From the NCBI RefSeq assembly GCF_016903815.1, contig NZ_CP069974.1: a stretch of 64,000 nucleotides of DNA; one strand, given 5' to 3'. Shown here piece after piece: positions 537 to 12,918 of this stretch; the stretch's first letter is position 1, and the number at the start of each line of letters is the position of its first letter. Position numbers and translations under genes: made by a program. The stretch is from Escherichia coli. GTDB lineage: Bacteria > Pseudomonadota > Gammaproteobacteria > Enterobacterales > Enterobacteriaceae. The notes beneath the pieces were generated by a model. That model saw nothing but the letters and a program-made list of their open reading frames with translations, did no database searches and was not told the origin of the DNA.

Positions 537-2990
537 TCAGTCTCCGCCCAGGGTTTTCTCTTTCTGCAGGTCACGAACCATATCCCGCTCCATCTGCTGC
601 AGACGCTCCTGCAGCAGATTTTCCCGGGCAACCTCCCGGACCGCTTCCCGTTCCCGTTGTGATTCACGCAGCACACTCTCCGGCAGTGCGGTTTCCCGTT
701 CAGAACTGGCAGTCCGGTCACGTTCCTGCCCGGCAATATCCCTGACAGCCAGCTCTGTTTTGCCGTCCGGCAGGTCAGGTTTGTTCTCTGCCATTTTACG
801 GACAATTTCATCTGCGCGACGTTCCGTTTCACGGCGGATGGCCTCTTCAGCCTGCCGCTGTGCCAGCACCTCTGCCGTGACCGGTTCGCCATTTCCGGCC
901 CCCGGCTGGACGCTGCTGTCCGGGATATCCCCCCACACGCGACCACCGGTGATGGCACCGGGATTCCACGGACGACCTTCACCGGCAATTCTTACCACCA
1001 CACCGCTGTCGGGATTATCACGGGCAATCCGGACACCATCCTGCATATTATCAGCCAGCAGGCTCTCTCCGTTACGGCTGCCCTGCAGGGCCACGAACTG
1101 CGCATCCCCGCGGCCTTTCACCCGTCCTTCACCGCTGAATCCCCGCAGCCCGTTTCCGTCATCCGTGGTCAGTGGGTTCAGCCAGATACCGGCGGACCTG
1201 CCGTTACGGTCAAACGCCGGCAGTGCCACATACGGCTGCGGATATTTACGTCCCGGTGCAATAAACCGTGCAGGGCTGTCTCCCCCGGCCAGCCCCGCCT
1301 GACGGAGAACGGCACGGCCTGCCGCCACGTCCCGCAGTTCCCGTGCCGTACTGAACAGCCGCTGCGCATTCATGACCTCCCGGTCCGGTTTCGGCTCAAA
1401 CACATCGTGGGCTGTTCCTTTCTGTACGGCATTGTTAATGGCATCCGTCCAGCCCTGACGGTTATCGGTGTACACCTGCACATGCTGCTTCATACGCGAC
1501 AGGGCCACGTAGGCTGACTCAAAGCCTGCCATCAGTTTCCGGTTACCTTCCGTGCCTTCAAGCGCAATGGCAAAGGTTTCACTTGTCCCCTGCGCACCGT
1601 GGGCGGTGATGGCATAGGCCAGGTCAATATGTTGCTCTGCCCGCTCCTGACCGGGGCGAATCACCCGGGTCTGCTGTCCGTCCGACAGCGTGACACTGTC
1701 ACCGGAAACCGCTGTCACCGTCCAGACGCTGTTGGCCACATAACCGCGCTCCCGGTCACTCTTCGTGAAGCGCATCCGGTCACCGGTTCCCACCCGGATT
1801 TTGTCTGGTGTGTACAGTGTGACACCTTCAGCCACCGCCTCCCGGGGCGAAATCAGCCGCGTGTTACCTTCCGCATCCTCCAGGGTTATCAGCCCGTCAT
1901 CCTTGCTGATACCGGCAATCCGGTGATACACACTATCCACCAGGGCAAGGGCATCCGGGTTATTCTCCCAGGTGGAGAGACGACGCAGTTCTCCGTCACG
2001 TATATTCGCTGTGTTCAGGACAGGCACCATGACCTGCTCTTTGCCCAGCTCACCGGCCTTTTCCCGTGCATCATGAATCATGCTGTTCAGTACGCGCCGG
2101 TCCTCATTCAGGTGCGTGACAATCAGCGTCTGCTCCCGTGCTTCCGGTGTCCTGCCGGTATAGTCGCGGACAATGGCCTCATACAGTGTCATGGGGATAT
2201 CCGGGAAAGCCTCGCCTTTCAGCATCGCCTTCTGCTGCGCTTCTGCCAGTTTCGCTTCCTGGCTGTGACTGAACTCCGTCACGGAGTGCTCCGGTGCCCA
2301 TGCGCCCTCCTGACGGGGAACCTGAGACGGTTTCACACTCTCAAGCCCGGACAGTGCCCTTTCCACATCCCGGTTAATCAGGCTGTATACCGCCTCCCGC
2401 AGTTCCGGCGTCTGACGCACAATCTCCTTCATGATGACCACATCGGCAGCACTGCGCGTCTGCTGCAGACGGAAAGGCTGACCGGGCGCGATGGCCTGCA
2501 GCTGGTCCGTGTCACCACTGGCCACGGCACGACCGCCACCGGCCGCAATCAGGGCGTATGCCCGTGCCATATCGGTATTGCCCACCATTGAGCTCTCATC
2601 GAGCAGGAACAGCGTGTTGCTGAAATCCGGCGTTTCTCCGCTGCGCTGCTGCAGCTGCGTGTCATGCAGAAAGGACGCCAGCGTCTGTGCATCCACGCCG
2701 GCGCTGCGCATCTCACCGACCGCACGGTGCGTGGGCCCCAGCCCCACAACTCGGGGACGCTCACTCGCCGGCAGCATGTTCACGGCTGACATCACCGCCC
2801 GGAACTGTGTGGTCTTACCCACACCGGCATAACCCTGTACCACCGTGAAACGGTCGGACGTTTCCAGTATCATACGGGTGGCGGCACGCTGTCCCGACGT
2901 TAACGTCTCCATGAGTTCGCCGGGTACTCTCTCCATCAACGGCGTGACCGCCTCCTTACCTTCGAGAATATGGCGAAGAATACTTTTTTC
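537..2990 (-). pseudogene. traI: traI 3' fragment (relaxase/helicase C-terminal part), severed by IS26
   Basis: ORF-track 1014-aa ORF matches F TraI C-terminal ~800 aa (from ...EKSILRHILEGKEAVTPLMERVPG... onward); its first ~200 codons run into IS26 and are not TraI. Confidence 0.9.
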
Positions 2991-3810
2991 GGCACTGTTG
3001 CAAATAGTCGGTGGTGATAAACTTATCATCCCCTTTTGCTGATGGAGCTGCACATGAACCCATTCAAAGGCCGGCATTTTCAGCGTGACATCATTCTGTG
3101 GGCCGTACGCTGGTACTGCAAATACGGCATCAGTTACCGTGAGCTGCAGGAGATGCTGGCTGAACGCGGAGTGAATGTCGATCACTCCACGATTTACCGC
3201 TGGGTTCAGCGTTATGCGCCTGAAATGGAAAAACGGCTGCGCTGGTACTGGCGTAACCCTTCCGATCTTTGCCCGTGGCACATGGATGAAACCTACGTGA
3301 AGGTCAATGGCCGCTGGGCGTATCTGTACCGGGCCGTCGACAGCCGGGGCCGCACTGTCGATTTTTATCTCTCCTCCCGTCGTAACAGCAAAGCTGCATA
3401 CCGGTTTCTGGGTAAAATCCTCAACAACGTGAAGAAGTGGCAGATCCCACGATTCATCAACACGGATAAAGCGCCCGCCTATGGTCGCGCGCTTGCTCTG
3501 CTCAAACGCGAAGGCCGGTGCCCGTCTGACGTTGAACACCGACAGATTAAGTACCGGAACAACGTGATTGAATGCGATCATGGCAAACTGAAACGGATAA
3601 TCAACGCCACGCTGGGATTTAAATCCATGAAGACGGCTTACGCCACCATCAAAGGTATTGAGGTGATGCGTGCACTACGCAAAGGCCAGGCCTCAGCATT
3701 TTATTATGGTGATCCCCTGGGCGAAATGCGCCTGGTAAGCAGAGTTTTTGAAATGTAAGGCCTTTGAATAAGACAAAAGGCTGCCTCATCGCTAACTTTG
3801 CAACAGTGCC
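2991..3810 (+). mobile_element. IS26 copy 1 (820 bp, 14-bp terminal inverted repeats GGCACTGTTGCAAA)
   Basis: IR at 2991-3004 and inverted copy at 3797-3810; encloses the 240-aa Tnp26 ORF. Confidence 0.95.
3036..3758 (+). CDS. tnpA: IS26 transposase Tnp26
   Basis: 240-aa ORF MLMELHMNPFKGRHFQRDIILWAV...; identical second copy at 9409..10131. Confidence 0.95.
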   Translation: MLMELHMNPFKGRHFQRDIILWAVRWYCKYGISYRELQEMLAERGVNVDHSTIYRWVQRYAPEMEKRLRWYWRNPSDLCPWHMDETYVKVNGRWAYLYRAVDSRGRTVDFYLSSRRNSKAAYRFLGKILNNVKKWQIPRFINTDKAPAYGRALALLKREGRCPSDVEHRQIKYRNNVIECDHGKLKRIINATLGFKSMKTAYATIKGIEVMRALRKGQASAFYYGDPLGEMRLVSRVFEM

Positions 3811-4765
3811 TTAACAAGTTGTTTGGGTGTTCGAATTTCAACAGGTAAGTTAGTTGCTAGAACCCATGGCTCCTTTGCCGACGCTGAGTAGATTTTAGGT
3901 GACGGGTGGTGACAATGAGTCCGTGTCGAGCGCTGATTTTTTCGGCCTTTAGAGCGAGATTTATACAATAGAATTTGGCATGAGATTGGATTGCTTTTAG
4001 TCAGCCTCTTATAGCCTAAAGTCTTTGAGTGACTAGATGACATATCATGTAAGTTGCTGATAGGTTTCCAGTTTTCCGCTCCTAGGTCTGCATATTGTAC
4101 TTTTCCTCTTACTCGACTTAACCAGTACCAACCCAGCTTCTCAACGGATTTATACCATGGCACTTTAAAGCCAGCATCACTGACAATGAGCGGTGTGGTG
4201 TTACTCGGTAGAATGCTCGCAAGGTCGGCTAGAAATTGGTCATGAGCTTTCTTTGAACATTGCTCTGAAAGCGGGAACGCTTTCTCATAAAGAGTAACAG
4301 AACGACCGTGTAGTGCGACTGAAGCTCGCAATACCATAAGTCGTTTTTGCTCACGAATATCAGACCAGTCAACAAGTACAATGGGCATCGTATTGCCCGA
4401 ACAGATAAAGCTAGCATGCCAACGGTATACAGCGAGTCGCTCTTTGTGGAGGTGACGATTACCTAACAATCGGTCGATTCGTTTGATGTTATGTTTTGTT
4501 CTCGCTTTGGTTGGCAGGTTACGGCCAAGTTCGGTAAGAGTGAGAGTTTTACAGTCAAGTAATGCGTGGCAAGCCAACGTTAAGCTGTTGAGTCGTTTTA
4601 AGTGTAATTCGGGGCAGAATTGGTAAAGAGAGTCGTGTAAAATATCGAGTTCGCACATCTTGTTGTCTGATTATTGATTTTTCGCGAAACCATTTGATCA
4701 TATGACAAGATGTGTATCCACCTTAACTTAATGATTTTTACCAAAATCATTAGGGGATTCATCAG
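3811..4765 (-). mobile_element. Truncated IS10 (outside end plus 5' 955 bp), cut by IS26
   Basis: IS10 outside end CTGATGAATCCCCTAATGATTTTGGTAAAAATCATTAAG on minus strand ending at 4765; Tnp N-terminus MCELDILHDSLYQFCPELHLKRLNSLTLACH... (ORF 3792..4658). Confidence 0.8.
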
Positions 4766-5837
4766 AGCATGATATCAAAACGCTCTGAGCTGCTCGTTCG
4801 GCTATGGCGTAGGCCTAGTCCGTAGGCAGGACTTTTCAAGTCTCGGAAGGTTTCTTCAATCTGCATTCGCTTCGAATAGATATTAACAAGTTGTTTGGGT
4901 GTTCGAATTTCAACAGGTAAGTTAGTTGCTAGAACCCATGGCTCCTTTGCCGACGCTGAGTAGATTTTAGGTGACGGGTGGTGACAATGAGTCCGTGTCG
5001 AGCGCTGATTTTTTCGGCCTTTAGAGCGAGATTTATACAATAGAATTTGGCATGAGATTGGATTGCTTTTAGTCAGCCTCTTATAGCCTAAAGTCTTTGA
5101 GTGACTAGATGACATATCATGTAAGTTGCTGATAGGTTTCCAGTTTTCCGCTCCTAGGTCTGCATATTGTACTTTTCCTCTTACTCGACTTAACCAGTAC
5201 CAACCCAGCTTCTCAACGGATTTATACCATGGCACTTTAAAGCCAGCATCACTGACAATGAGCGGTGTGGTGTTACTCGGTAGAATGCTCGCAAGGTCGG
5301 CTAGAAATTGGTCATGAGCTTTCTTTGAACATTGCTCTGAAAGCGGGAACGCTTTCTCATAAAGAGTAACAGAACGACCGTGTAGTGCGACTGAAGCTCG
5401 CAATACCATAAGCCGTTTTTGCTCACGGATATCAGACCAGTCAACAAGTACAATGGGCATCGTATTGCCCGAACAGATAAAGCTAGCATGCCAACGGTAT
5501 ACAGCGAGTCGCTCTTTGTGGAGGTGACGATTACCTAACAATCGGTCGATTCGTTTGATGTTATGTTTTGTTCTCGCTTTGGTTGGCAGGTTACGGCCAA
5601 GTTCGGTAAGAGTGAGAGTTTTACAGTCAAGTAATGCGTGGCAAGCCAACGTTAAGCTGTTGAGTCGTTTTAAGTGTAATTCGGGGCAGAATTGGTAAAG
5701 AGAGTCGTGTAAAATATCGAGTTCGCACATCTTGTTGTCTGATTATTGATTTTTCGCGAAACCATTTGATCATATGACAAGATGTGTATCCACCTTAACT
5801 TAATGATTTTTACCAAAATCATTAGGGGATTCATCAG
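4766..5837 (-). mobile_element. Second truncated IS10 copy (5' 1072 bp) in direct tandem with the first
   Basis: Same IS10 end at 5837; Tnp N-terminal 322 aa (ORF 4762..5730); near-identical to 3811..4765 with 1072-bp period. Confidence 0.8.
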
Positions 5838-5872
5838 CGTATAGTGTTTTGCAGTTTAGAGGAGATATCGCG

Positions 5873-6733
5873 ATGCATACGCGGAAGGCAATAACGGAGG
5901 CGCTTCAAAAACTCGGAGTCCAAACCGGTGACCTCTTGATGGTGCATGCCTCACTTAAAGCGATTGGTCCGGTCGAAGGAGGAGCGGAGACGGTCGTTGC
6001 CGCGTTACGCTCCGCGGTTGGGCCGACTGGCACTGTGATGGGATACGCGTCGTGGGACCGATCACCCTACGAGGAGACTCTGAATGGCGCTCGGCTGGAT
6101 GACGAAGCCCGCCGTACCTGGCTGCCGTTCGATCCCGCAACAGCCGGGACTTACCGTGGGTTCGGCCTGCTGAATCAATTTCTGGTTCAAGCCCCCGGCG
6201 CGCGGCGCAGCGCGCACCCCGATGCATCGATGGTCGCGGTTGGTCCGCTGGCTGAAACGCTGACGGAGCCTCACGAACTCGGTCACGCCTTGGGGGAAGG
6301 ATCGCCCGTCGAGCGGTTCGTTCGCCTTGGCGGGAAGGCCCTGCTGTTGGGTGCGCCGCTAAACTCCGTTACCGCATTGCACTACGCCGAGGCGGTTGCC
6401 GATATCCCCAACAAACGGTGGGTGACGTATGAGATGCCGATGCTTGGAAGAGACGGTGAAGTCGCCTGGAAAACGGCATCGGATTACGATTCAAACGGCA
6501 TTCTCGATTGCTTTGCTATCGAAGGAAAGCCGGATGCGGTTGAAACTATAGCAAATGCTTACGTGAAGCTCGGTCGCCATCGAGAAGGTGTCGTGGGCTT
6601 TGCTCAGTGCTACCTGTTCGACGCGCAGGACATCGTGACGTTCGGCGTCACCTATCTTGAGAAGCATTTCGGAACCACTCCGATCGTGCCTCCGCACGAG
6701 GCCGTCGAGCGCTCTTGCGAGCCTTCAGGTTAG
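5873..6733 (+). CDS. aac(3)-II: Aminoglycoside 3-N-acetyltransferase AAC(3)-II (gentamicin/tobramycin resistance)
   Basis: 286-aa product MHTRKAITEALQKLGVQTGDLLMVHASLKAIGPVEGG... matches recalled AAC(3)-IIa/IId family; RBS GAGGAG 9 nt upstream. ORF-track start 5849 is an upstream extension. Allele (IIa/IId/IIe) not resolvable by eye. Confidence 0.9.
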   Translation: MHTRKAITEALQKLGVQTGDLLMVHASLKAIGPVEGGAETVVAALRSAVGPTGTVMGYASWDRSPYEETLNGARLDDEARRTWLPFDPATAGTYRGFGLLNQFLVQAPGARRSAHPDASMVAVGPLAETLTEPHELGHALGEGSPVERFVRLGGKALLLGAPLNSVTALHYAEAVADIPNKRWVTYEMPMLGRDGEVAWKTASDYDSNGILDCFAIEGKPDAVETIANAYVKLGRHREGVVGFAQCYLFDAQDIVTFGVTYLEKHFGTTPIVPPHEAVERSCEPSG

Positions 6734-6745
6734 AGGCCGTCGACA

Positions 6746-7288
6746 ATGATAATCTGGATCAACGGACCTTTCGGCGCCGGAAAGACGACGCTCGCTAAGC
6801 GGCTGCGCGATCGGCGTTCCAAATCGCTGATCTTTGACCCCGAGGAAATCGGGTTCGTGGTGAAAGAAACGGTCCCCATGCCAGCGAGCGGAGACTATCA
6901 GGATCTCCCCTTGTGGAGGGGACTTACGATCGCGGCGGTCAGGGAGATTCGAAGGAATTACTCGCAGGACATCATCATCCCAATGACGCTCGTGCACCCG
7001 GACTATCTGACTGAGATACTCGACGGGGTAAGGCGGATCGACGATCAGCTGCTGCACATCTTTCTGACGCTCAACGAGGACCTATTGCGTCACCGGATCG
7101 CGAACCAGACCATGCATCCTGACCCGAATCGAAATGCGGAGATTCGAGAGTGGCGATTAGCGAATGTCGCCCGATGCTTGGCCGCAAGGGAACGGCTTCC
7201 ATGCACAACCCGTGTTCTCGATAGTGGTGCACACACCAGCGATGAACTCGCAGCGATGGTGCTCGACGGAATCGATGGGCGCACCTGA
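6746..7288 (+). CDS. tmrB: Tunicamycin resistance protein TmrB-like ATP-binding protein
   Basis: 180-aa ORF with P-loop GPFGAGKTT; the gene classically linked downstream of aac(3)-II. Confidence 0.85.
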   Translation: MIIWINGPFGAGKTTLAKRLRDRRSKSLIFDPEEIGFVVKETVPMPASGDYQDLPLWRGLTIAAVREIRRNYSQDIIIPMTLVHPDYLTEILDGVRRIDDQLLHIFLTLNEDLLRHRIANQTMHPDPNRNAEIREWRLANVARCLAARERLPCTTRVLDSGAHTSDELAAMVLDGIDGRT

Positions 7289-7381
7289 TCGCCTTCGACG
7301 CCTGCGCAAAGCGTAGCGCGAGGGTGGCGGGCTCACGACCAAACGCCCAGAGGTCGATCATCGCAGGGATGTTTGGCTTTG

Positions 7382-7680
7382 TGGTGCGGACGACGGGACT
7401 CGAACCCGTACTCTCACAGAGAAGCAGATTTTCGTACCACCTCGACTTTCGCCGCCGTCTGATGACGTTCGTGGTCTGGACTGTCCCTTCGCCATTGCCC
7501 GAAGGCTTTAGGCGCCGCCCGTCCAGTCTCTACACCTTCCCCCGAAGGGGCTTGGCTCGGGATTGGCTTAGGGTATTGCCCGTTAGCGTTCCCCGACTTT
7601 GAGCGGTTCTACTCCGCGGATTTCCCCGCGGGCACTCCAATTTTAAAGTCTGCTGCGTCTACCGATTTCGCCACGTCCGC
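7382..7680 (-). tRNA. tRNA-Leu(UAA) gene interrupted in the anticodon loop by a ~213-nt group I intron
   Basis: Minus strand: 5' exon GCGGACGTGGCGAAATCGGTAGACGCAGCAGACTT (acceptor, class II D arm, anticodon stem, C32-U34); 3' exon AAAATCTGCTTCTCTGTGAGAGTACGGGTTCGAGTCCCGTCGTCCGCACCA (rest of loop, long variable arm, T arm GGTTCGAGTCC, acceptor exactly complementary to GCGGACG, encoded CCA). Exons roughly 7680..7646 and 7432..7382. Confidence 0.7.
7433..7645 (-). ncRNA. Group I intron (tRNA anticodon-loop type, resembling the small cyanobacterial/Azoarcus tRNA introns)
   Basis: Follows exon U34, ends in G; contains core-like segments CCGAGCCAAGC...GAAGGTGTAGAGACTGGACGG...CCTAAAGC resembling the recalled Azoarcus tRNA-Ile intron; no ORF. 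Boundaries +/- 2 nt. Confidence 0.6.
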
Positions 7681-8262
7681 CTTTTTTCGCCGTTCCTAGC
7701 GCTCGTGCGATGCACCTATGTTGCACCTAGCGCCGAATCGTTCTTCGTCATCCTGAAAAACCACGTCTCCTAAAGCCTTGCATAGCTTATCTTTTCTCCA
7801 CCACGAACTTTTTTGTGGGATGGTAGAAAAAAAGACTTTTTAAGTCCGCTGGCTTGCCAGGCCTTGTTAGCTTGTACGGTCATGGTTATCGGGTAAAGAA
7901 TATTGACGGCATCGCTGGTGTCGGTGGCTGAAAAGCCGGCTCCCATCAGGGCAATAGCCATTTCAGATGCAGGCGTACAGGGCAATGGTCAACAGCTACA
8001 GCCTGTCTGACGATTCCGGCGTCATGGCTGCGGCGGCTATCACGCATTTTTTGTTCGGTCAGGCGGTGTTTTCGTACCTCAATGGTTGGAGCGTGTTGAT
8101 CGGACCTGGTACAGGTTTGGACAGCACGGGCTGCAAATACGCAAGGGATTTAATGGGCCTGGTGGCGTTCACGGCTTTTATCGTGACGTTTCTGTTCAGG
8201 GGCTACTCATAATCTCGTGGCTCGGCGGTTCCCGGCACACCATGACAGTAAGGAAGGACCCT

Positions 8263-9390
8263 GTGTCTCAACTCTCCCAGCTTCGAAGCCCCGCCGCCGT
8301 GCAGGCTGCCATCGATGAGTTCGTGCAACTGGGCCGCACGAAATTCCTGGCGCGCCACGGCTACGGCAAGTCCCGCGACTTCCTGGTACGTGATCCGAAG
8401 ACCGGCACCGATTGCGATTCCAAGGCCATCGCCGGTGTGGCCTTCGGCAAGCAATTTCCCGAGCAGGGCCCGCTCACTGCTGACAGCTTCTCCGGTGGCG
8501 AGGCGACCGTCGTTCCGGCGCTGACGCGGCTCGGGTTTCGCATCATTCGCATCGGCGAAGACTGGTCCGAAGAAGAGGTCCTGGCCACGGTCGAAGACTA
8601 TTTCGACATGCTGCGTGCCGAGGCGGCTGGGGAGCCGTACAACAAGTCCGAGCACAACCAGGCACTGCGCCAACTGCTGAACGGTCGCAGCAAGTCTTCA
8701 GTCGAGCTCAAGCACCAGAACATTAGCGCCGTACTCGATGCCCTGGGCCTGCCCTATATCAACGGCTACAAGCCACGCGGCAACAGCCAACTGCTGCTGC
8801 GTAAATCCGTACACGCCTACGTTCTGGAACATCAGCAGACGGTCGGCGCTCTTGTCGATGCCCTGGAGGAGGTAAAACTTCCGGGTGACAAAACCTACCG
8901 AGCGGCTTTGGTAGAACCACCCGCCCGTGAAGTGCTTGTGCGTACCCCGGCATCTCTACGGCAACGCCTACCGCGAAAGTTCGATTATGCCGCTCGCGAT
9001 GAAGCCAACCGCAAGCTGGGCCGGGCAGGGGAGCAGTGGGTGATTGGCTACGAACAGCAACGCCTGACCGAGCTCGGCCACCCAGAGCTTTTTCAGCGGC
9101 TGGATTGGGTGTCCGACACCCAGGGAGACGGTGCGGGGTTCGACATCCTGTCGTTCGAAGAGGACGCCCATGAGCGCTTCATCGAGGTGAAAACCACCAA
9201 TGGCGGGGTAGGCTCGTCTTTCTTGGTCAGCCACAACGAACTCGAATTCTCCAAGGAGGCGGGCGATCAATTCCATCTGTATCGCGTGTTCCAGTTTCGG
9301 GACGGTCCGCGCCTGTTCACGCTACCCGGCGACCTCAGCCAACATGTGCATCTCAAGCCGACGGGCACTGTTGCAAATAGTCGGTGGTGA
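8263..9390 (+). CDS. DUF3883-type protein with PD-(D/E)xK-like C-terminal nuclease fold; 3' end fused into IS26
   Basis: ORF in frame of track ORF 8086..9390; likely start GTG 8263 (RBS AGGAAGG at 8251) or ATG 8242. C-terminal GFDILSFEEDAHERFIEVKTT...LYRVFQF recalled as DUF3883; last ~9 codons derive from the IS26 inverted repeat. Confidence 0.6.
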   Translation: MSQLSQLRSPAAVQAAIDEFVQLGRTKFLARHGYGKSRDFLVRDPKTGTDCDSKAIAGVAFGKQFPEQGPLTADSFSGGEATVVPALTRLGFRIIRIGEDWSEEEVLATVEDYFDMLRAEAAGEPYNKSEHNQALRQLLNGRSKSSVELKHQNISAVLDALGLPYINGYKPRGNSQLLLRKSVHAYVLEHQQTVGALVDALEEVKLPGDKTYRAALVEPPAREVLVRTPASLRQRLPRKFDYAARDEANRKLGRAGEQWVIGYEQQRLTELGHPELFQRLDWVSDTQGDGAGFDILSFEEDAHERFIEVKTTNGGVGSSFLVSHNELEFSKEAGDQFHLYRVFQFRDGPRLFTLPGDLSQHVHLKPTGTVANSRW

Positions 9391-10183
9391 TAAACTTATC
9401 ATCCCCTTTTGCTGATGGAGCTGCACATGAACCCATTCAAAGGCCGGCATTTTCAGCGTGACATCATTCTGTGGGCCGTACGCTGGTACTGCAAATACGG
9501 CATCAGTTACCGTGAGCTGCAGGAGATGCTGGCTGAACGCGGAGTGAATGTCGATCACTCCACGATTTACCGCTGGGTTCAGCGTTATGCGCCTGAAATG
9601 GAAAAACGGCTGCGCTGGTACTGGCGTAACCCTTCCGATCTTTGCCCGTGGCACATGGATGAAACCTACGTGAAGGTCAATGGCCGCTGGGCGTATCTGT
9701 ACCGGGCCGTCGACAGCCGGGGCCGCACTGTCGATTTTTATCTCTCCTCCCGTCGTAACAGCAAAGCTGCATACCGGTTTCTGGGTAAAATCCTCAACAA
9801 CGTGAAGAAGTGGCAGATCCCACGATTCATCAACACGGATAAAGCGCCCGCCTATGGTCGCGCGCTTGCTCTGCTCAAACGCGAAGGCCGGTGCCCGTCT
9901 GACGTTGAACACCGACAGATTAAGTACCGGAACAACGTGATTGAATGCGATCATGGCAAACTGAAACGGATAATCAACGCCACGCTGGGATTTAAATCCA
10001 TGAAGACGGCTTACGCCACCATCAAAGGTATTGAGGTGATGCGTGCACTACGCAAAGGCCAGGCCTCAGCATTTTATTATGGTGATCCCCTGGGCGAAAT
10101 GCGCCTGGTAAGCAGAGTTTTTGAAATGTAAGGCCTTTGAATAAGACAAAAGGCTGCCTCATCGCTAACTTTGCAACAGTGCC
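9364..10183 (+). mobile_element. IS26 copy 2, direct orientation relative to copy 1
   Basis: IRs at 9364-9377 and 10170-10183; tnpA ORF 9409..10131 identical to copy 1. Confidence 0.95.
9409..10131 (+). CDS. tnpA: IS26 transposase Tnp26 (copy 2)
   Basis: Identical 240-aa ORF. Confidence 0.95.
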   Translation: MLMELHMNPFKGRHFQRDIILWAVRWYCKYGISYRELQEMLAERGVNVDHSTIYRWVQRYAPEMEKRLRWYWRNPSDLCPWHMDETYVKVNGRWAYLYRAVDSRGRTVDFYLSSRRNSKAAYRFLGKILNNVKKWQIPRFINTDKAPAYGRALALLKREGRCPSDVEHRQIKYRNNVIECDHGKLKRIINATLGFKSMKTAYATIKGIEVMRALRKGQASAFYYGDPLGEMRLVSRVFEM

Positions 10184-12918
10184 CTTTTTTCTGCCTCATA
10201 CGACGCACGGGAAACCAGCAGACCTGTGCCATAGCCTTTTGCCACATCCACATACAGTAAGTCACCGCGTTTTATCTGCGCATTGATTTCCCCTCCCAGT
10301 TCAGTAAAACCGGTTCCTTCTGCAGCAAACGACTTCGCCTCTGTCAGCAGGTCCACCATGCTGAAGGCCAGGTTTTTACTTTCCAGCACAGGAAGGGCCA
10401 GATGAATGGCCTGCTGTGCCGGCGTGTGAAGCCCGGCTTTCTGCAGACTGATAGCGGTTTCCAGCAATGTCTCACCGGCACGCGCCTTTATCTGATCAGA
10501 AACCACCGTAAAGGAGGGATGGCGGGCAAGTTTTTCCGCAGTACGGGGTTCATCCAGCGAGGAATACAGCCGGACATCACGACCACTGCGGGCCAGACCG
10601 TTCAGGGTCGCGTTGTCCATCGCCATCTGTGTGACGGAGGCAAAAACCGTCGCACTGTCGCTGACGGAATGCCCGGGCGTTTCCACCCAGCCGTTCTCCA
10701 GCTTCAGTGCCGTGAATGGTGAATCAGCCACAGGCAGGGTGGCCGGTTCAGCCCGCCCCGGCACAACAACCGTCATCGCATCTTCACTGACGGATGCCAC
10801 CTGCAGGCGGTCACCGCCGGAGACGCGGAGTCCGGGAATTTTCCCTGTCACCCTCAGTCGCTCGCCGTCTGCCACCGGCATTTTTTCCGGCCGGAACAGC
10901 GACCAGCTGCTGTCCAGGGAGGAAATACGCACCACCTGCGTTTCGCCCTGCGCATCCCGCAGGTTCAGGCTGTGACTCTGCGCTGTCACCCGGTCTATCA
11001 CATAGCGGTCATGACTGCGTGTCTCCGGGTTCCACTGCTCCATCACCATCCCCGGTCGGTACATATCCCGCAGATAACGGCTCCGGCTGTCCAGCCAGAC
11101 CGGTGACAGTGCAGTCATGGTCACCTCAGGGTGTCCGAGCACGCCCTGCGTTTTCAGCTCACTGCGAATGGCCTCTGTCAGTATGGCCTGTTCCCGTACC
11201 CCGCTGACCTGTGCCACGCTCTCTTCTCCGGCTTTCACGCTGGCCGCAAAATCTCCGGCCAGCCGGGCATAGCGGACATTACGGTCCGGTTCACTGATGA
11301 TGGTGGCCGGTCGCTGTTCTCCCCCCTGCCAGCGATATGTGTTCACCCCGGCATCCTTCATGGCCATCAGTGCACTGCCTGTACCGGTTCGCTGCCCGCT
11401 GTCGGTTATCAGGACCTGTACGTTATGACGTGCGGCACCATCCAGCAGGGTTAACGTCTCTTTCAGGGAGAGTTTTTCGCCCTGGTCGACGATAACGGTA
11501 CTGCCCGGCGGGAAGGCCATGCCTTCCAGCAACTGACGACGTCCGGTTATCAGTTCACCGGACAGCCGTTCATCCTGCTTCAGGTTCATCTGCGAGCGAC
11601 GGTCAGCAGCGATAATCTGCACCTCCCGCCCCTGCTCCCGGGCCATCATGACCAGTTCAGCCACCCGCTCACGCTGCCCGGCTGCACCGCCCTGCCCGGA
11701 CACAATGGCCAGCGACGGGCGATCCTGTGCCAGAACACTGACGGCATCGCTGTAACCGGCCGTCCGGGGGACACTTTTCTCCGGATGTACGGTCACCCGG
11801 TTCTGTTTCATGATGTCACGACTGAGTGCCCGGACTGACAGCTCATCGAGCACATGAATCCCGGACGTGAACAGCCCCTTCTCACGATCGAGGGGGATAA
11901 GCTGCTCACGGCTGATGGCCTCATCGATACCGGCGCGTGCCCGTTCAATCACACCATTTTCCGGCGGCAGTATGCCGACCGTCCTGGCCAGCACGTCCGT
12001 ATACGTGAACTGCACTTTTCGTTCACTTAATCCGGCAATGGCCTGTGTCACCGCCTGCTGCACATCCGGCCCGTCCTGTGAAGCAGGCCCGGGCGCCTGC
12101 GTGCGGATCTCCGCACGCTGATCCGCCGCGTCACGATATGCCCGGATGTCGAACCCGGTTTCCTTCAGCGTCTGCATCCATTCAGCCATTCTGACTTCAG
12201 GATCGACGTGCTGTTTGGATTTACGCGTATCCAGTGCCGCCACATCCCGGGATTTCAGCGAGGCGTCTTCACCGACGGCCTCCCGGATAGCCTGTGAGCG
12301 TCCGGAGAAGGCTTCCACCGGTACGCCCGGCATCTCCCACATACCGTGCTTACCGACCACTTCGGTTTCATAACCCAGCGCCTCAACGCGCTGACGTAAC
12401 TCACTCTGATATATTTTCCCGAACGCAATCCGGTTCGCGAGCACGTTCTCGGAAAATCCGGTTTTCCCCACTTTGTCACTGCTCAGTGTCTTCCATTCGC
12501 CGTTATGCTGCGTGACATTAGCCACCACCACATGCGTGTGTAACTGTGGGTCCTGATCGCGACTGGTGTCATGGTTAAACAGTGCCATCACCAGATTACC
12601 GGTCAGCACCGTTTCTGACTGTCCGTCCGTCATCACCCGTGTGGAAGCCAGCGCCTCCACCTGACGGACAGCAAAATCCACAGCCTGGTTATGTGCATCA
12701 ATAAGACGTTTATCCCCCCCGAGCATGGCCATCATGGAGACACTTTTGGGGGCGGAGAAGGTCAGGTCGTAGCCGGGACGATGCTTATTACTGCCATCCT
12801 GCATGCGGCTTAAATCCGCCCCGTCCGGCAGCCTGCCCTCCAGAAGACGGGTAAAAACATCCTTATCGACGCTGCCCTGCAGCCCAAGCTGTTCAGCCCC
12901 CTGAACGGAAAAAAGCAC
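10184..12918 (-). pseudogene. traI: traI 5' fragment (relaxase domain), lacking the first ~37 codons and severed by IS26
   Basis: 917-aa ORF matches F TraI from ...[27 protein letters not shown]... to ...SYEAEK; recalled N-terminus MMSIAQVRSAGSAGNYYTDKDNYY (catalytic tyrosines) is absent. Confidence 0.9.

Follow-up and report, generated by a model that had tools for sequence, protein, structure and literature searches.

The 64-kb window (the whole stretch of DNA that was analysed) carries near its left end a resistance module enclosed by two copies of IS26. The left copy (820 bp, positions 2991 to 3810, plus strand) has its terminal repeats at 2991 and 3810, and the right copy (9364 to 10183, plus strand) is identical to it and lies in direct orientation. 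The pair is flanked by an 8-bp target-site duplication, CTTTTTTC, with one copy at 2983 to 2990 and its repeat at 10184 to 10191. When the IS26 unit was removed in silico together with one copy of CTTTTTTC, a TraI open reading frame of at least 1728 amino acids was restored. With a direct IS26 pair around its cargo and a flanking 8-bp duplication, the unit is an IS26-bounded module (pseudo-compound transposon) inserted in traI.

Inside the module, the left IS26 is followed by two incomplete stretches of IS10, by the aminoglycoside 3-N-acetyltransferase gene aac(3)-IId, responsible for gentamicin/tobramycin resistance (5873 to 6733, plus strand), and by a tmrB-like AAA ATPase gene co-carried with it (6746 to 7288, plus strand; annotated as 'tunicamycin resistance protein' or AAA family ATPase). 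The remainder of the aac(3)-IId module (7289 to 9363, plus strand) holds small hypothetical genes and a DUF3883 gene, according to the annotation of the identical stretch of pAMA1167-NDM-5. The position of the resistance gene was likewise taken from the RefSeq annotation of an identical stretch, and its product matched Pfam Antibiotic_NAT and NCBIfam NF033080 AAC(3)-II (541.5 bits, cut-off 480). The allele is aac(3)-IId, identical DNA being annotated as AAC(3)-IId WP_000557454.1.

Between the outside end of IS10 (5837) and the ATG of aac(3)-IId (5873) lies a leader of 35 bp (5838 to 5872, plus strand, read directly), the very distance proposed by an earlier reading made from the sequence only. 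The leader starts with the 9-bp IS10 target duplication CGTATAGTG (5838 to 5846) and contains a -10-like TATAGT at 5840-5845 and a ribosome-binding site, GAGGAG, at 5859-5864. It has a ribosome-binding site and is too short for a complete promoter.

Two truncated IS10 copies and their putative outward promoters

The outside end of IS10, CTGATGAATCCCCTAATGATTTT, occurs exactly twice in the 64-kb window, both times on the minus strand, with ends at 4765 and 5837, and none was expected from shuffles of the window. The period of the repeat is 1072 bp. Copy 1 (3811 to 4765, minus strand, 955 bp) corresponds to IS10 nucleotides 1-955 and comprises the outside end, the pIN/pOUT region and transposase codons 1-282. 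Copy 2 (4766 to 5837, minus strand, 1072 bp) corresponds to nucleotides 1-1072 and comprises the same elements with transposase codons 1-321. The right end of the left IS26 truncates copy 1 at IS10 nucleotide 955, and at the diagnostic junction 4765/4766 (within 4762 to 4770) the outside end of copy 1 (IS10 nucleotide 1) is joined to nucleotide 1072 of copy 2. The sequence-only reading had described a direct tandem of two truncated IS10 left ends, of 955 and 1072 bp, the first cut by IS26 and the second abutting an internal IS10 position near 1072. Its coordinates and lengths hold, IS26 does adjoin nucleotide 955, and the second junction falls at nucleotide 1072 exactly.

As reference we used a 1329-bp IS10 element rebuilt from public records. 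Copy 2 is 100% identical to its nucleotides 1-1072, and copy 1 is 99.8% identical to nucleotides 1-955, with 2 SNPs (T at nucleotide 410 and A at nucleotide 425). The 23-bp outside end is exact in both copies, which identifies them as IS10. Aligned from their outside ends, the copies show only 2 mismatches, T at 4341 versus C at 5413 (IS10 nucleotide 425) and A at 4356 versus G at 5428 (IS10 nucleotide 410), both of them synonymous. Neither copy has the full 1329 bp, both ends and the 402-amino-acid DDE transposase of a complete IS10. The open reading frames stop after 321 IS10 codons in copy 2 and 282 in copy 1, and no IS10 inside end was found anywhere in the window, either by end search or by direct reading. 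A profile search assigned the copy 2 transposase to the IS4 family. The Pfam DDE_Tnp_1 match covers profile positions 3-192 of 200 in copy 2 and only 3-154 of 200 in copy 1, which misses the end of the DDE domain. In the RefSeq annotation of the identical stretch, the NCBI pipeline labels the fragments 'ISVsa5 family transposase, incomplete'. The two copies are fragments and not functional IS copies, and the lack of an inside end, together with the truncation of both transposases, makes them immobile.

Each copy has nevertheless kept an intact gene for the antisense RNA RNA-OUT (Rfam RF00240), at 4651 to 4720 in copy 1 and at 5723 to 5792 in copy 2, both on the plus strand, which is that of aac(3)-IId. 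The matches scored 98.8 bits against a gathering score of 41 and covered model positions 1-70 of 70. From the start of RNA-OUT in copy 2 to the ATG of aac(3)-IId the distance is 150 nt, and no terminator-like site was predicted on the plus strand between the two genes. The putative pOUT region of copy 2 (5680 to 5722, plus strand) was positioned from the Rfam RNA-OUT 5' end at 5723 and from published IS10 biology (PMC9330008). It points towards aac(3)-IId and includes a -10-like TAAAAT (5710-5715). A generic sigma-70 promoter scan of positions 4500 to 5950 returned no consensus site, and the putative pOUT region was not flagged either.

Transcripts from pOUT are reported to leave IS10 and to switch on neighbouring genes (PMC9330008 section 4.5; PMC4574204). 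As RNA-OUT of copy 2 is intact and shares its strand with aac(3)-IId, read-through from pOUT of copy 2 into the gene appears plausible, and copy 2 probably supplies the promoter. Alternatively, the TATAGT of the leader could be part of a hybrid promoter. Copy 1, the distal one, is in all likelihood carried along without effect. Should aac(3)-IId indeed be transcribed from pOUT here, the resistance genes driven by IS10 would gain a clinical example that is very common.

Occurrence and structural variants

The junction between IS10 nucleotides 1072 and 1 was counted with an 80-mer and a 50-mer spanning 4765/4766. It was found in approximately 264 PLSDB plasmids and in 277 of 5,426 complete E. 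coli genomes, and a 2.5-kb stretch including the tandem is 100% identical in dozens of independent complete plasmids. The structure, which had first been taken as unusual, is therefore common: the tandem is an ordinary, already-sequenced structure. No published description specific to a tandem IS10 remnant upstream of aac(3)-IId was found in the literature, which yielded gene lists only and in which the parentheses of the gene name are unsearchable.

The structure comes in several forms. In Klebsiella pneumoniae pXH210-AMV and in one E. coli chromosome the same 1072/1 junction is present and IS26 cuts at nucleotide 1009, instead of 955 as in the window. E. coli D2 plasmid A contains a three-unit array with two junctions 1072 bp apart, so that one-, two- and three-unit forms are all in circulation, and in some relatives the copies are identical over 1009 bp. 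A combined query for the IS26/955 and IS26/1009 boundaries was swamped by IS26 ends with chance extensions of 1-4 nt. As rough bounds from a ranked sample, the 955 cut is present in at most about 84 records and both cuts together in 255-339.

The alleles 410T/425A of copy 1 were also considered as a rare marker tying this copy to one donor. This was rejected, since they are common among IS10 copies, with approximately 1,046 PLSDB records, R100 included.

With about 5% of complete E. coli genomes carrying it, the 1072/1 junction is a clean single-origin marker. Read together with the point at which IS26 cuts (955 or 1009), it allows lineages of the aac(3)-IId-tmrB module, which measures roughly 5.5 kb and has approximately 750 carriers in PLSDB, to be followed from plasmid to plasmid and from species to species. 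The 1-kb direct repeat will be collapsed in short-read assemblies, and its copy number may consequently be misreported. The main value of the structure thus lies in annotation and epidemiology, and the current view of IS10 and IS26 is unchallenged.

Origin of the tandem

Relatives of the locus were compared with the window. A form resembling an ancestor, in the order tnpR, blaTEM-1, Tn2 IRR, CGTATAGTG, complete IS10, CGTATAGTG and aac(3)-IId, was found in one Edwardsiella tarda plasmid and in two E. coli plasmids from frogs. A 9-bp target duplication is thus seen in relatives, where CGTATAGTG flanks a complete IS10 (loci L006 and L010), and not in the window itself. In a context free of IS10, the Tn2 IRR abuts GTATAGTG. 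The single IS10 of the ancestor-like form has the alleles 410T/425A, as copy 1, whereas the gene-proximal copy 2 has C/G. In Raoultella plasmid pRo24724, the complete IS10 adjoining aac(3)-IId also has C/G. The same plasmid was the only one in which a true head-to-tail IS10 pair with a 9-bp spacer was seen.

Insertion of IS10 duplicates 9 bp of the target. Had one IS10 entered another, a reciprocal junction would be predicted, in which IS10 nucleotides 1088 to 1064 run into a complete IS10 at its inside end. We searched for it with a 50-mer. Each junction query was 50 nt long and had 25 nt on either side; as this is shorter than the 28-nt word of megablast, a match can be seeded by a genuine junction only. 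Nothing could be learned from a 1449-bp query that combined flank, complete IS10 and flank of the fully nested structure, because the joined pieces map inside any normal IS10 and every complete IS10 gave 100% coverage. The 50-mer had no match in PLSDB and a single one among the E. coli genomes, in E. coli GPEC60-33-648, at 100% over 50 nt. The window junction and this reciprocal junction overlap by exactly 9 bp, nucleotides 1064-1072. The match is located in IS10-left of a Tn10 and not beside aac(3)-IId, and so is either the outcome of a separate event at that site or a relative that recombination has rearranged. No record in which aac(3)-IId is preceded by the complete nested arrangement was found in PLSDB or among the complete E. 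coli genomes.

The exact IS10 terminus and the reciprocal junction with its 9-bp overlap therefore argue that one IS10 transposed into another, and the tandem predates IS26, because the same 1072/1 junction occurs with IS26 cuts at 955 and at 1009. We consider it likely, with a probability of roughly 0.8, that the tandem is a dead relic of an IS10 that transposed into an IS10 and was later trimmed by IS26, and that its gene-proximal copy places pOUT so as to transcribe aac(3)-IId. In such a scenario, a complete IS10 would have inserted directly in front of aac(3)-IId, on the border of the inverted repeat of Tn2 (blaTEM-1), making the 9-bp CGTATAGTG. A second IS10 would then have entered nucleotides 1064-1072 of the resident copy in the same orientation, so that the outside end of the incoming element (nucleotide 1) became joined to resident nucleotide 1072, copy 2 being the target copy. 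IS26 would subsequently have deleted everything on the left, namely what remained of the incoming element, the 3' portion of the resident copy and Tn2, at least two independent times (at nucleotide 955 in the window and 1009 elsewhere). The product, in the order IS26, IS10 (955 to 1), IS10 (1072 to 1), aac(3)-IId, tmrB ... IS26, would have spread as an IS26-bounded module, here into traI, and homologous recombination between the 1-kb direct repeats would shift the number of units among 1, 2 and 3.

Two observations fit this scenario less well. The known IS10 target consensus is NGCTNAGCN, and on direct reading the 9-bp site TATCATGCT fits it poorly, which counts against nesting. Furthermore, the SNP pattern is not the simplest one: it needs either gene conversion or an order of events involving transposition of a composite, because the single-IS10 form has 410T/425A and copy 2 has C/G. 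In the latter case the nesting would have taken place elsewhere, and a 2401-bp composite of IS10 nucleotides 1-1072 and a full IS10 (1-1329) would then have transposed to the boundary between Tn2 and aac(3)-IId, the single-IS10 forms being later recombinational collapses. Gene conversion is then not needed to account for the SNPs. The single IS10 left by a crossover within nucleotides 1-410 would have 410T/425A, which is the state seen in the Edwardsiella plasmid and the two plasmids of frog E. coli, and that left by a crossover past nucleotide 425 would have C/G, the state seen in Raoultella. Changes in unit number by recombination demonstrably occur, and the ends of the 2401-bp element would, from IS10 biology, form a legitimate pair of an outside and an inside end. 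However, no record has a complete copy 1 plus the 1072-bp unit between Tn2 and aac(3)-IId, and all 3 records with the Tn2-CGTATAGTG-inside-end junction hold a single IS10. The only nested donor found is IS10-left, whose nucleotides 1-1072 would carry 8 SNPs that are absent from copy 2. As it also takes more steps than nesting in situ, we regard this order of events as unlikely.

The tandem might also have been retained because it is useful, either by stacking pOUT promoters that raise aac(3)-IId transcription or by providing a double dose of RNA-OUT that suppresses other IS10/Tn10 elements (multicopy inhibition). Both units keep intact RNA-OUT genes oriented towards aac(3)-IId, and 277 of the 566 E. 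coli genomes with IS10-aac(3)-IId, about half, have kept the tandem. For other resistance genes, nested IS elements are known to contribute promoters that act additively (PMC9330008 section 4.3). Selection of this kind seems quite improbable, since the distal pOUT is 1.2 kb away from aac(3)-IId, one-, two- and three-unit forms all circulate, and hitch-hiking on a successful IS26 module explains the frequency equally well. Even more speculative is the proposal that nucleotides 1064-1072 are a preferred self-target of IS10, struck in two separate events, once in the IS10 linked to aac(3)-IId and once in IS10-left of a Tn10, and that a tandem of one to three pOUT/RNA-OUT copies would act as a recombination-tunable dial for aac(3)-IId expression or as an antisense 'immunity' damping IS10/Tn10 transposition in the hosts of these very common plasmids; we give it very little credence.

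Replication slippage or unequal recombination, duplicating a 1072-bp segment without transposase, was the origin put forward from the sequence alone. The strict 1072-bp period, the expansion to three units and the identity of the copies over 1009 bp in some relatives would agree with it. We nevertheless find it hardly credible: one boundary of the duplication is the exact terminal nucleotide of IS10, direct reading reveals no microhomology between the joined sequences, slippage gives no reason to expect the reciprocal junction, which exists and is offset by exactly 9 bp, and the third unit needs only a pre-existing repeat. Amplification, suggested along with slippage, does describe what happens to the 1072-bp unit once formed, as its number varies (three in E. 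coli D2 plasmid A), and fails as an account of how the unit arose. Finally, kilobase-scale repeats are a classic source of misassembly, but the suspicion that an assembler had wrongly duplicated a single truncated IS10 can be set aside, as the same junction has been assembled independently hundreds of times, in complete sequences from many laboratories, hosts and species, together with SNPs specific to one copy and with variants in structure (IS26 cut at 955 or 1009; two or three units), and assemblers collapse such repeats and do not create them.

Comparison with known systems

As a module, the unit resembles the IS26 pseudo-compound transposons and translocatable units that carry aac(3)-II-tmrB, with which it shares the identical direct IS26 pair, the 8-bp duplication and a neighbouring element trimmed by IS26 at different points in different lineages. 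Compared with these units it has nothing unusual, and the IS10 tandem is cargo at one of its inner edges.

The (IS)2 dimers of IS21, IS30 and IS911 consist of complete copies, in which one copy's right end meets its neighbour's left end across a spacer of a few bp, forming a hyper-reactive junction. The IS10 tandem resembles them in having two copies of one IS head-to-tail. It differs in that the outside end is joined to internal nucleotide 1072 and the array is inert. An active tandem dimer of the (IS)2 type was therefore rejected for this locus, where the junction connects an outside end to nucleotide 1072 and there is no inside end.

A further comparison was made with cases in which the outside end of IS10/Tn10 activates an adjacent gene (acrEF in Salmonella; cat in pSU vectors). 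The fragments of the window agree with these activators in being IS10 at 99.8-100%, with the outside end, the 5' region of the transposase gene and a full-length RNA-OUT. As in the pOUT cases (PMC9330008, PMC4574204), the outside end faces the gene, here aac(3)-IId at a distance of 35 bp. Unlike in these cases, IS10 is represented here by two truncated, immobile, head-to-tail pieces, and activation of aac(3)-IId by pOUT is judged from geometry.

The closest parallels for the nesting are the insertions of ISAba825, IS1008 or IS1006 inside ISAba3 upstream of blaOXA-58 (PMC9330008 section 4.3). In both situations one IS lies inside another just upstream of a resistance gene, and the truncated resident separates the newcomer from the gene. 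In the ISAba3 cases the two elements differ, whereas here the incoming and the resident element are the same IS in the same orientation, so that the result has the appearance of a partial tandem duplication and is unstable through recombination (one to three units). The incoming IS10 also lies on the far side of the resident copy, so that, in contrast to the ISAba3 cases, no new hybrid promoter is created at aac(3)-IId.

Structure of the IS10 tandem

A repeat scan of the window revealed a direct repeat with a period of 1072 bp, starting at positions 3811 and 4883. The IS10 outside end (nt 1 side, CTGATGAATCCCCTAATGATTTT) occurs exactly twice in the window, where none would be expected by chance, both times on the minus strand and ending at 4765 and 5837. 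Aligned from these ends, the minus-strand segments 3811-4765 (955 bp, copy 1) and 4766-5837 (1072 bp, copy 2) differ at just 2 positions. A 1329-bp reference IS10 with exact numbering was rebuilt from copy 2 and the 3' part of IS10 from a Tn10-bearing plasmid. Copy 2 was 100% identical to nt 1-1072 of this element, and copy 1 corresponds to nt 1-955 with two synonymous changes, nt 410 C>T and nt 425 G>A. At its outside end copy 1 directly abuts nt 1072 of copy 2, and at nt 955 it is cut by the right end of an IS26 (2991-3810). The outside end of copy 2 lies 35 bp from the aac(3)-IId start (5873). Direct reading and alignment thus bore out the sequence-only reading, which had described two truncated IS10 left ends, the first cut by IS26, with an outside end 35 bp from a gene named aac(3)-II; the gene is specifically aac(3)-IId. 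Since both fragments lack the inside end (nt 1329 side) and their transposase ORFs end after 321 and 282 IS10 codons, neither can transpose. The NCBI pipeline labels both as incomplete transposase genes of the 'ISVsa5 family'.

Origin and recurrence of the tandem

Insertion of a second IS10 into the first predicts a reciprocal junction, in which the incoming inside end is joined to target nt 1064 (9-bp duplication of nt 1064-1072). The corresponding 50-mer was found in none of the PLSDB plasmids; the E. coli GPEC60-33-648 chromosome has a 100% match, and there a complete IS10 comes after 266 bp of the IS10-left of a Tn10 (nt 1329 to 1064). With nt 1072 as the last position at the window junction and nt 1064 as the first at the GPEC60-33-648 junction, the two overlap by exactly 9 bp; the window junction lies at the precise terminal IS10 nucleotide, with no microhomology. 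On these grounds we conclude that the tandem is the product of IS10-into-IS10 transposition: a second IS10 would have inserted at nt 1064-1072 of the first, duplicating 9 bp, and IS26 trimmed the nested pair afterwards.

The single-IS10 'ancestor' carries 410T/425A, as does the distal copy 1, versus C/G in the proximal copy 2, both allele pairs being common among IS10 copies. This pattern may reflect either gene conversion or an alternative order of events, which it also fits, in which a 2401-bp composite transposed in as one unit and the single IS10 copies are later collapses. As the SNPs of the GPEC60-33-648 IS10-left target are missing from copy 2, either two insertions struck one site or recombination reshuffled the copies, so that nesting may have occurred once or twice. 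Replicative slippage, proposed in the sequence-only reading, was rejected, as reciprocal junctions overlapping by exactly 9 bp are a product of IS10 transposition and not of slippage.

In the GPEC60-33-648 chromosome (NZ_CM142764, locus positions 5760-7354) the outside end of the complete IS10 following the remnant of IS10-left (nt 1064-1329) abuts a disrupted fimbrial gene, and the locus resembles a derivative of Tn10 whose transposition used this end. Five IS10-left-type SNPs at nt 1249-1281 of the nested IS10 suggest that it underwent gene conversion with the 266-bp repeat next to it.

Dozens of complete plasmids from varied laboratories, hosts and countries, pAMA1167-NDM-5 among them, carry the 2.5-kb region 3600-6100 at 100% identity. 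The tandem junction was present in approximately 264 PLSDB plasmids and, as a 50-mer, in 277 of 5,426 complete E. coli genomes, and the junction of the outside end with the aac(3)-IId leader in 749 PLSDB plasmids and 566 of the 5,426 genomes; one third to one half of the IS10-aac(3)-IId carriers therefore bear the tandem. In K. pneumoniae pXH210-AMV the junction is kept, the two copies are identical and the IS26 cut in copy 1 falls at nt 1009 rather than 955; an E. coli chromosome shows the same junction and cut, judged from annotation and junction pattern only. E. coli D2 plasmid A (NZ_CP010138, locus positions 800-3990) carries three units, IS26-[1009]-[1072]-[1072]-aac(3)-IId, in which 1072 bp separate the two junctions. 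This recurrence, together with the variants, excludes for practical purposes the assembly artefact considered earlier, and the tandem is clearly older than the IS26 truncations. The three units of D2 plasmid A mark the 1-kb repeat as active in recombination, and its units would be miscounted in assemblies from short reads. The right-hand IS26 of that plasmid truncates tmrB.

Upstream contexts and probable promoter of aac(3)-IId

The Tn2/Tn3 right inverted repeat (...GCGTCAGACCCC) runs directly into the aac(3)-IId leader (GTATAGTGTTTTGCAG...) on a Salmonella IncI plasmid. IS10 insertion at this boundary predicts Tn2-IRR-CGTATAGTG-inside end, and the 50-mer matched one Edwardsiella tarda plasmid and two frog-farm E. 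coli plasmids. All three read tnpR-blaTEM-1-IRR-CGTATAGTG-[one complete IS10]-CGTATAGTG-aac(3)-IId, the classic outcome of an insertion that duplicates 9 bp. The form with both duplications intact was found only in one frog-farm setting, at Shantou, China (E. tarda GT88 and E. coli ET350 plasmids); its presence there in two genera indicates local spread of this ancestor-like form between them.

In Raoultella ornithinolytica pRo24724 (NZ_CP021328, locus positions 1654-4329) a complete IS10 adjoins aac(3)-IId, and two complete copies lie head-to-tail upstream of the gene with just 9 bp (AGCTTCGCC) between them. With 14 SNPs, the distal copy is an IS10-left-like variant, and since its flanking 9-bp repeats are inverted and not direct (GGCGAAGCT ... 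AGCTTCGCC), IS10-mediated inversion or recombination is suggested rather than simple insertion.

Three upstream contexts, namely the IS10 outside end, the Tn2 inverted repeat and the sequence preceding aac(3)-IIe, break within 1-2 bp, just before a -10-like TATAGT (window 5838-5846; positions 2995-3010 of comparison locus L005), homology of the aac(3)-IIe context beginning at window 5839. This breakpoint either marks the boundary of the segment as first captured or is a site where insertions were selected for supplying upstream promoter elements.

Both copies contain a full-length gene for the antisense RNA-OUT (4651-4720 and 5723-5792, Rfam, 98.8 bits each), on the plus strand like aac(3)-IId. 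The proximal one starts 150 nt upstream of the aac(3)-IId ATG, with no terminator-like site between them on that strand, and the 35-bp leader, with its RBS GAGGAG (5859-5864) and the TATAGT, is too short for a complete promoter. A fraction of the transcripts from the outward promoter pOUT reportedly crosses the IS10 end and activates neighbouring genes, at about 10% of lacUV5 (PMC9330008, section 4.5; PMC4574204). For these reasons pOUT of copy 2 is most likely the aac(3)-IId promoter in the window, by inference. Copy 1 is most simply neutral; a contribution of the second pOUT or the extra RNA-OUT is possible but unsupported.

The IS26 module and comparison with known systems

The tandem sits at the inner left edge of a module bounded by identical, directly oriented IS26 copies (2991-3810 and 9364-10183) and carrying aac(3)-IId, a tmrB-like ATPase gene, two small hypothetical genes and a DUF3883 gene. 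The 7,193-bp IS26-aac(3)-IId-IS26 unit is flanked by an 8-bp duplication, CTTTTTTC (window 2983-10191), and interrupts the conjugative relaxase gene traI; once it is removed, an ORF for TraI of 1728 aa or more is restored, and the plasmid therefore probably cannot transfer itself. Matching traI::IS26 junctions were found in four PLSDB plasmids (CP020496, CP020519, CP103763 and CP103523).

A literature search found no paper on this particular tandem relic, which nonetheless features, with annotation, in hundreds of public records. The tandem is real, and the suggestion of pOUT plausible. An (IS)2-type active dimer was rejected, because the tandem lacks the abutting inside and outside ends that define such a dimer. 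By all features tested, the pieces are IS10 fragments, RNA-OUT, AAC(3)-IId and an IS26 pseudo-compound transposon. These parts belong to well-known families, and it is commonplace for IS elements to be nested in front of resistance genes, for IS26 to trim its neighbours and for direct repeats to change in copy number through recombination.
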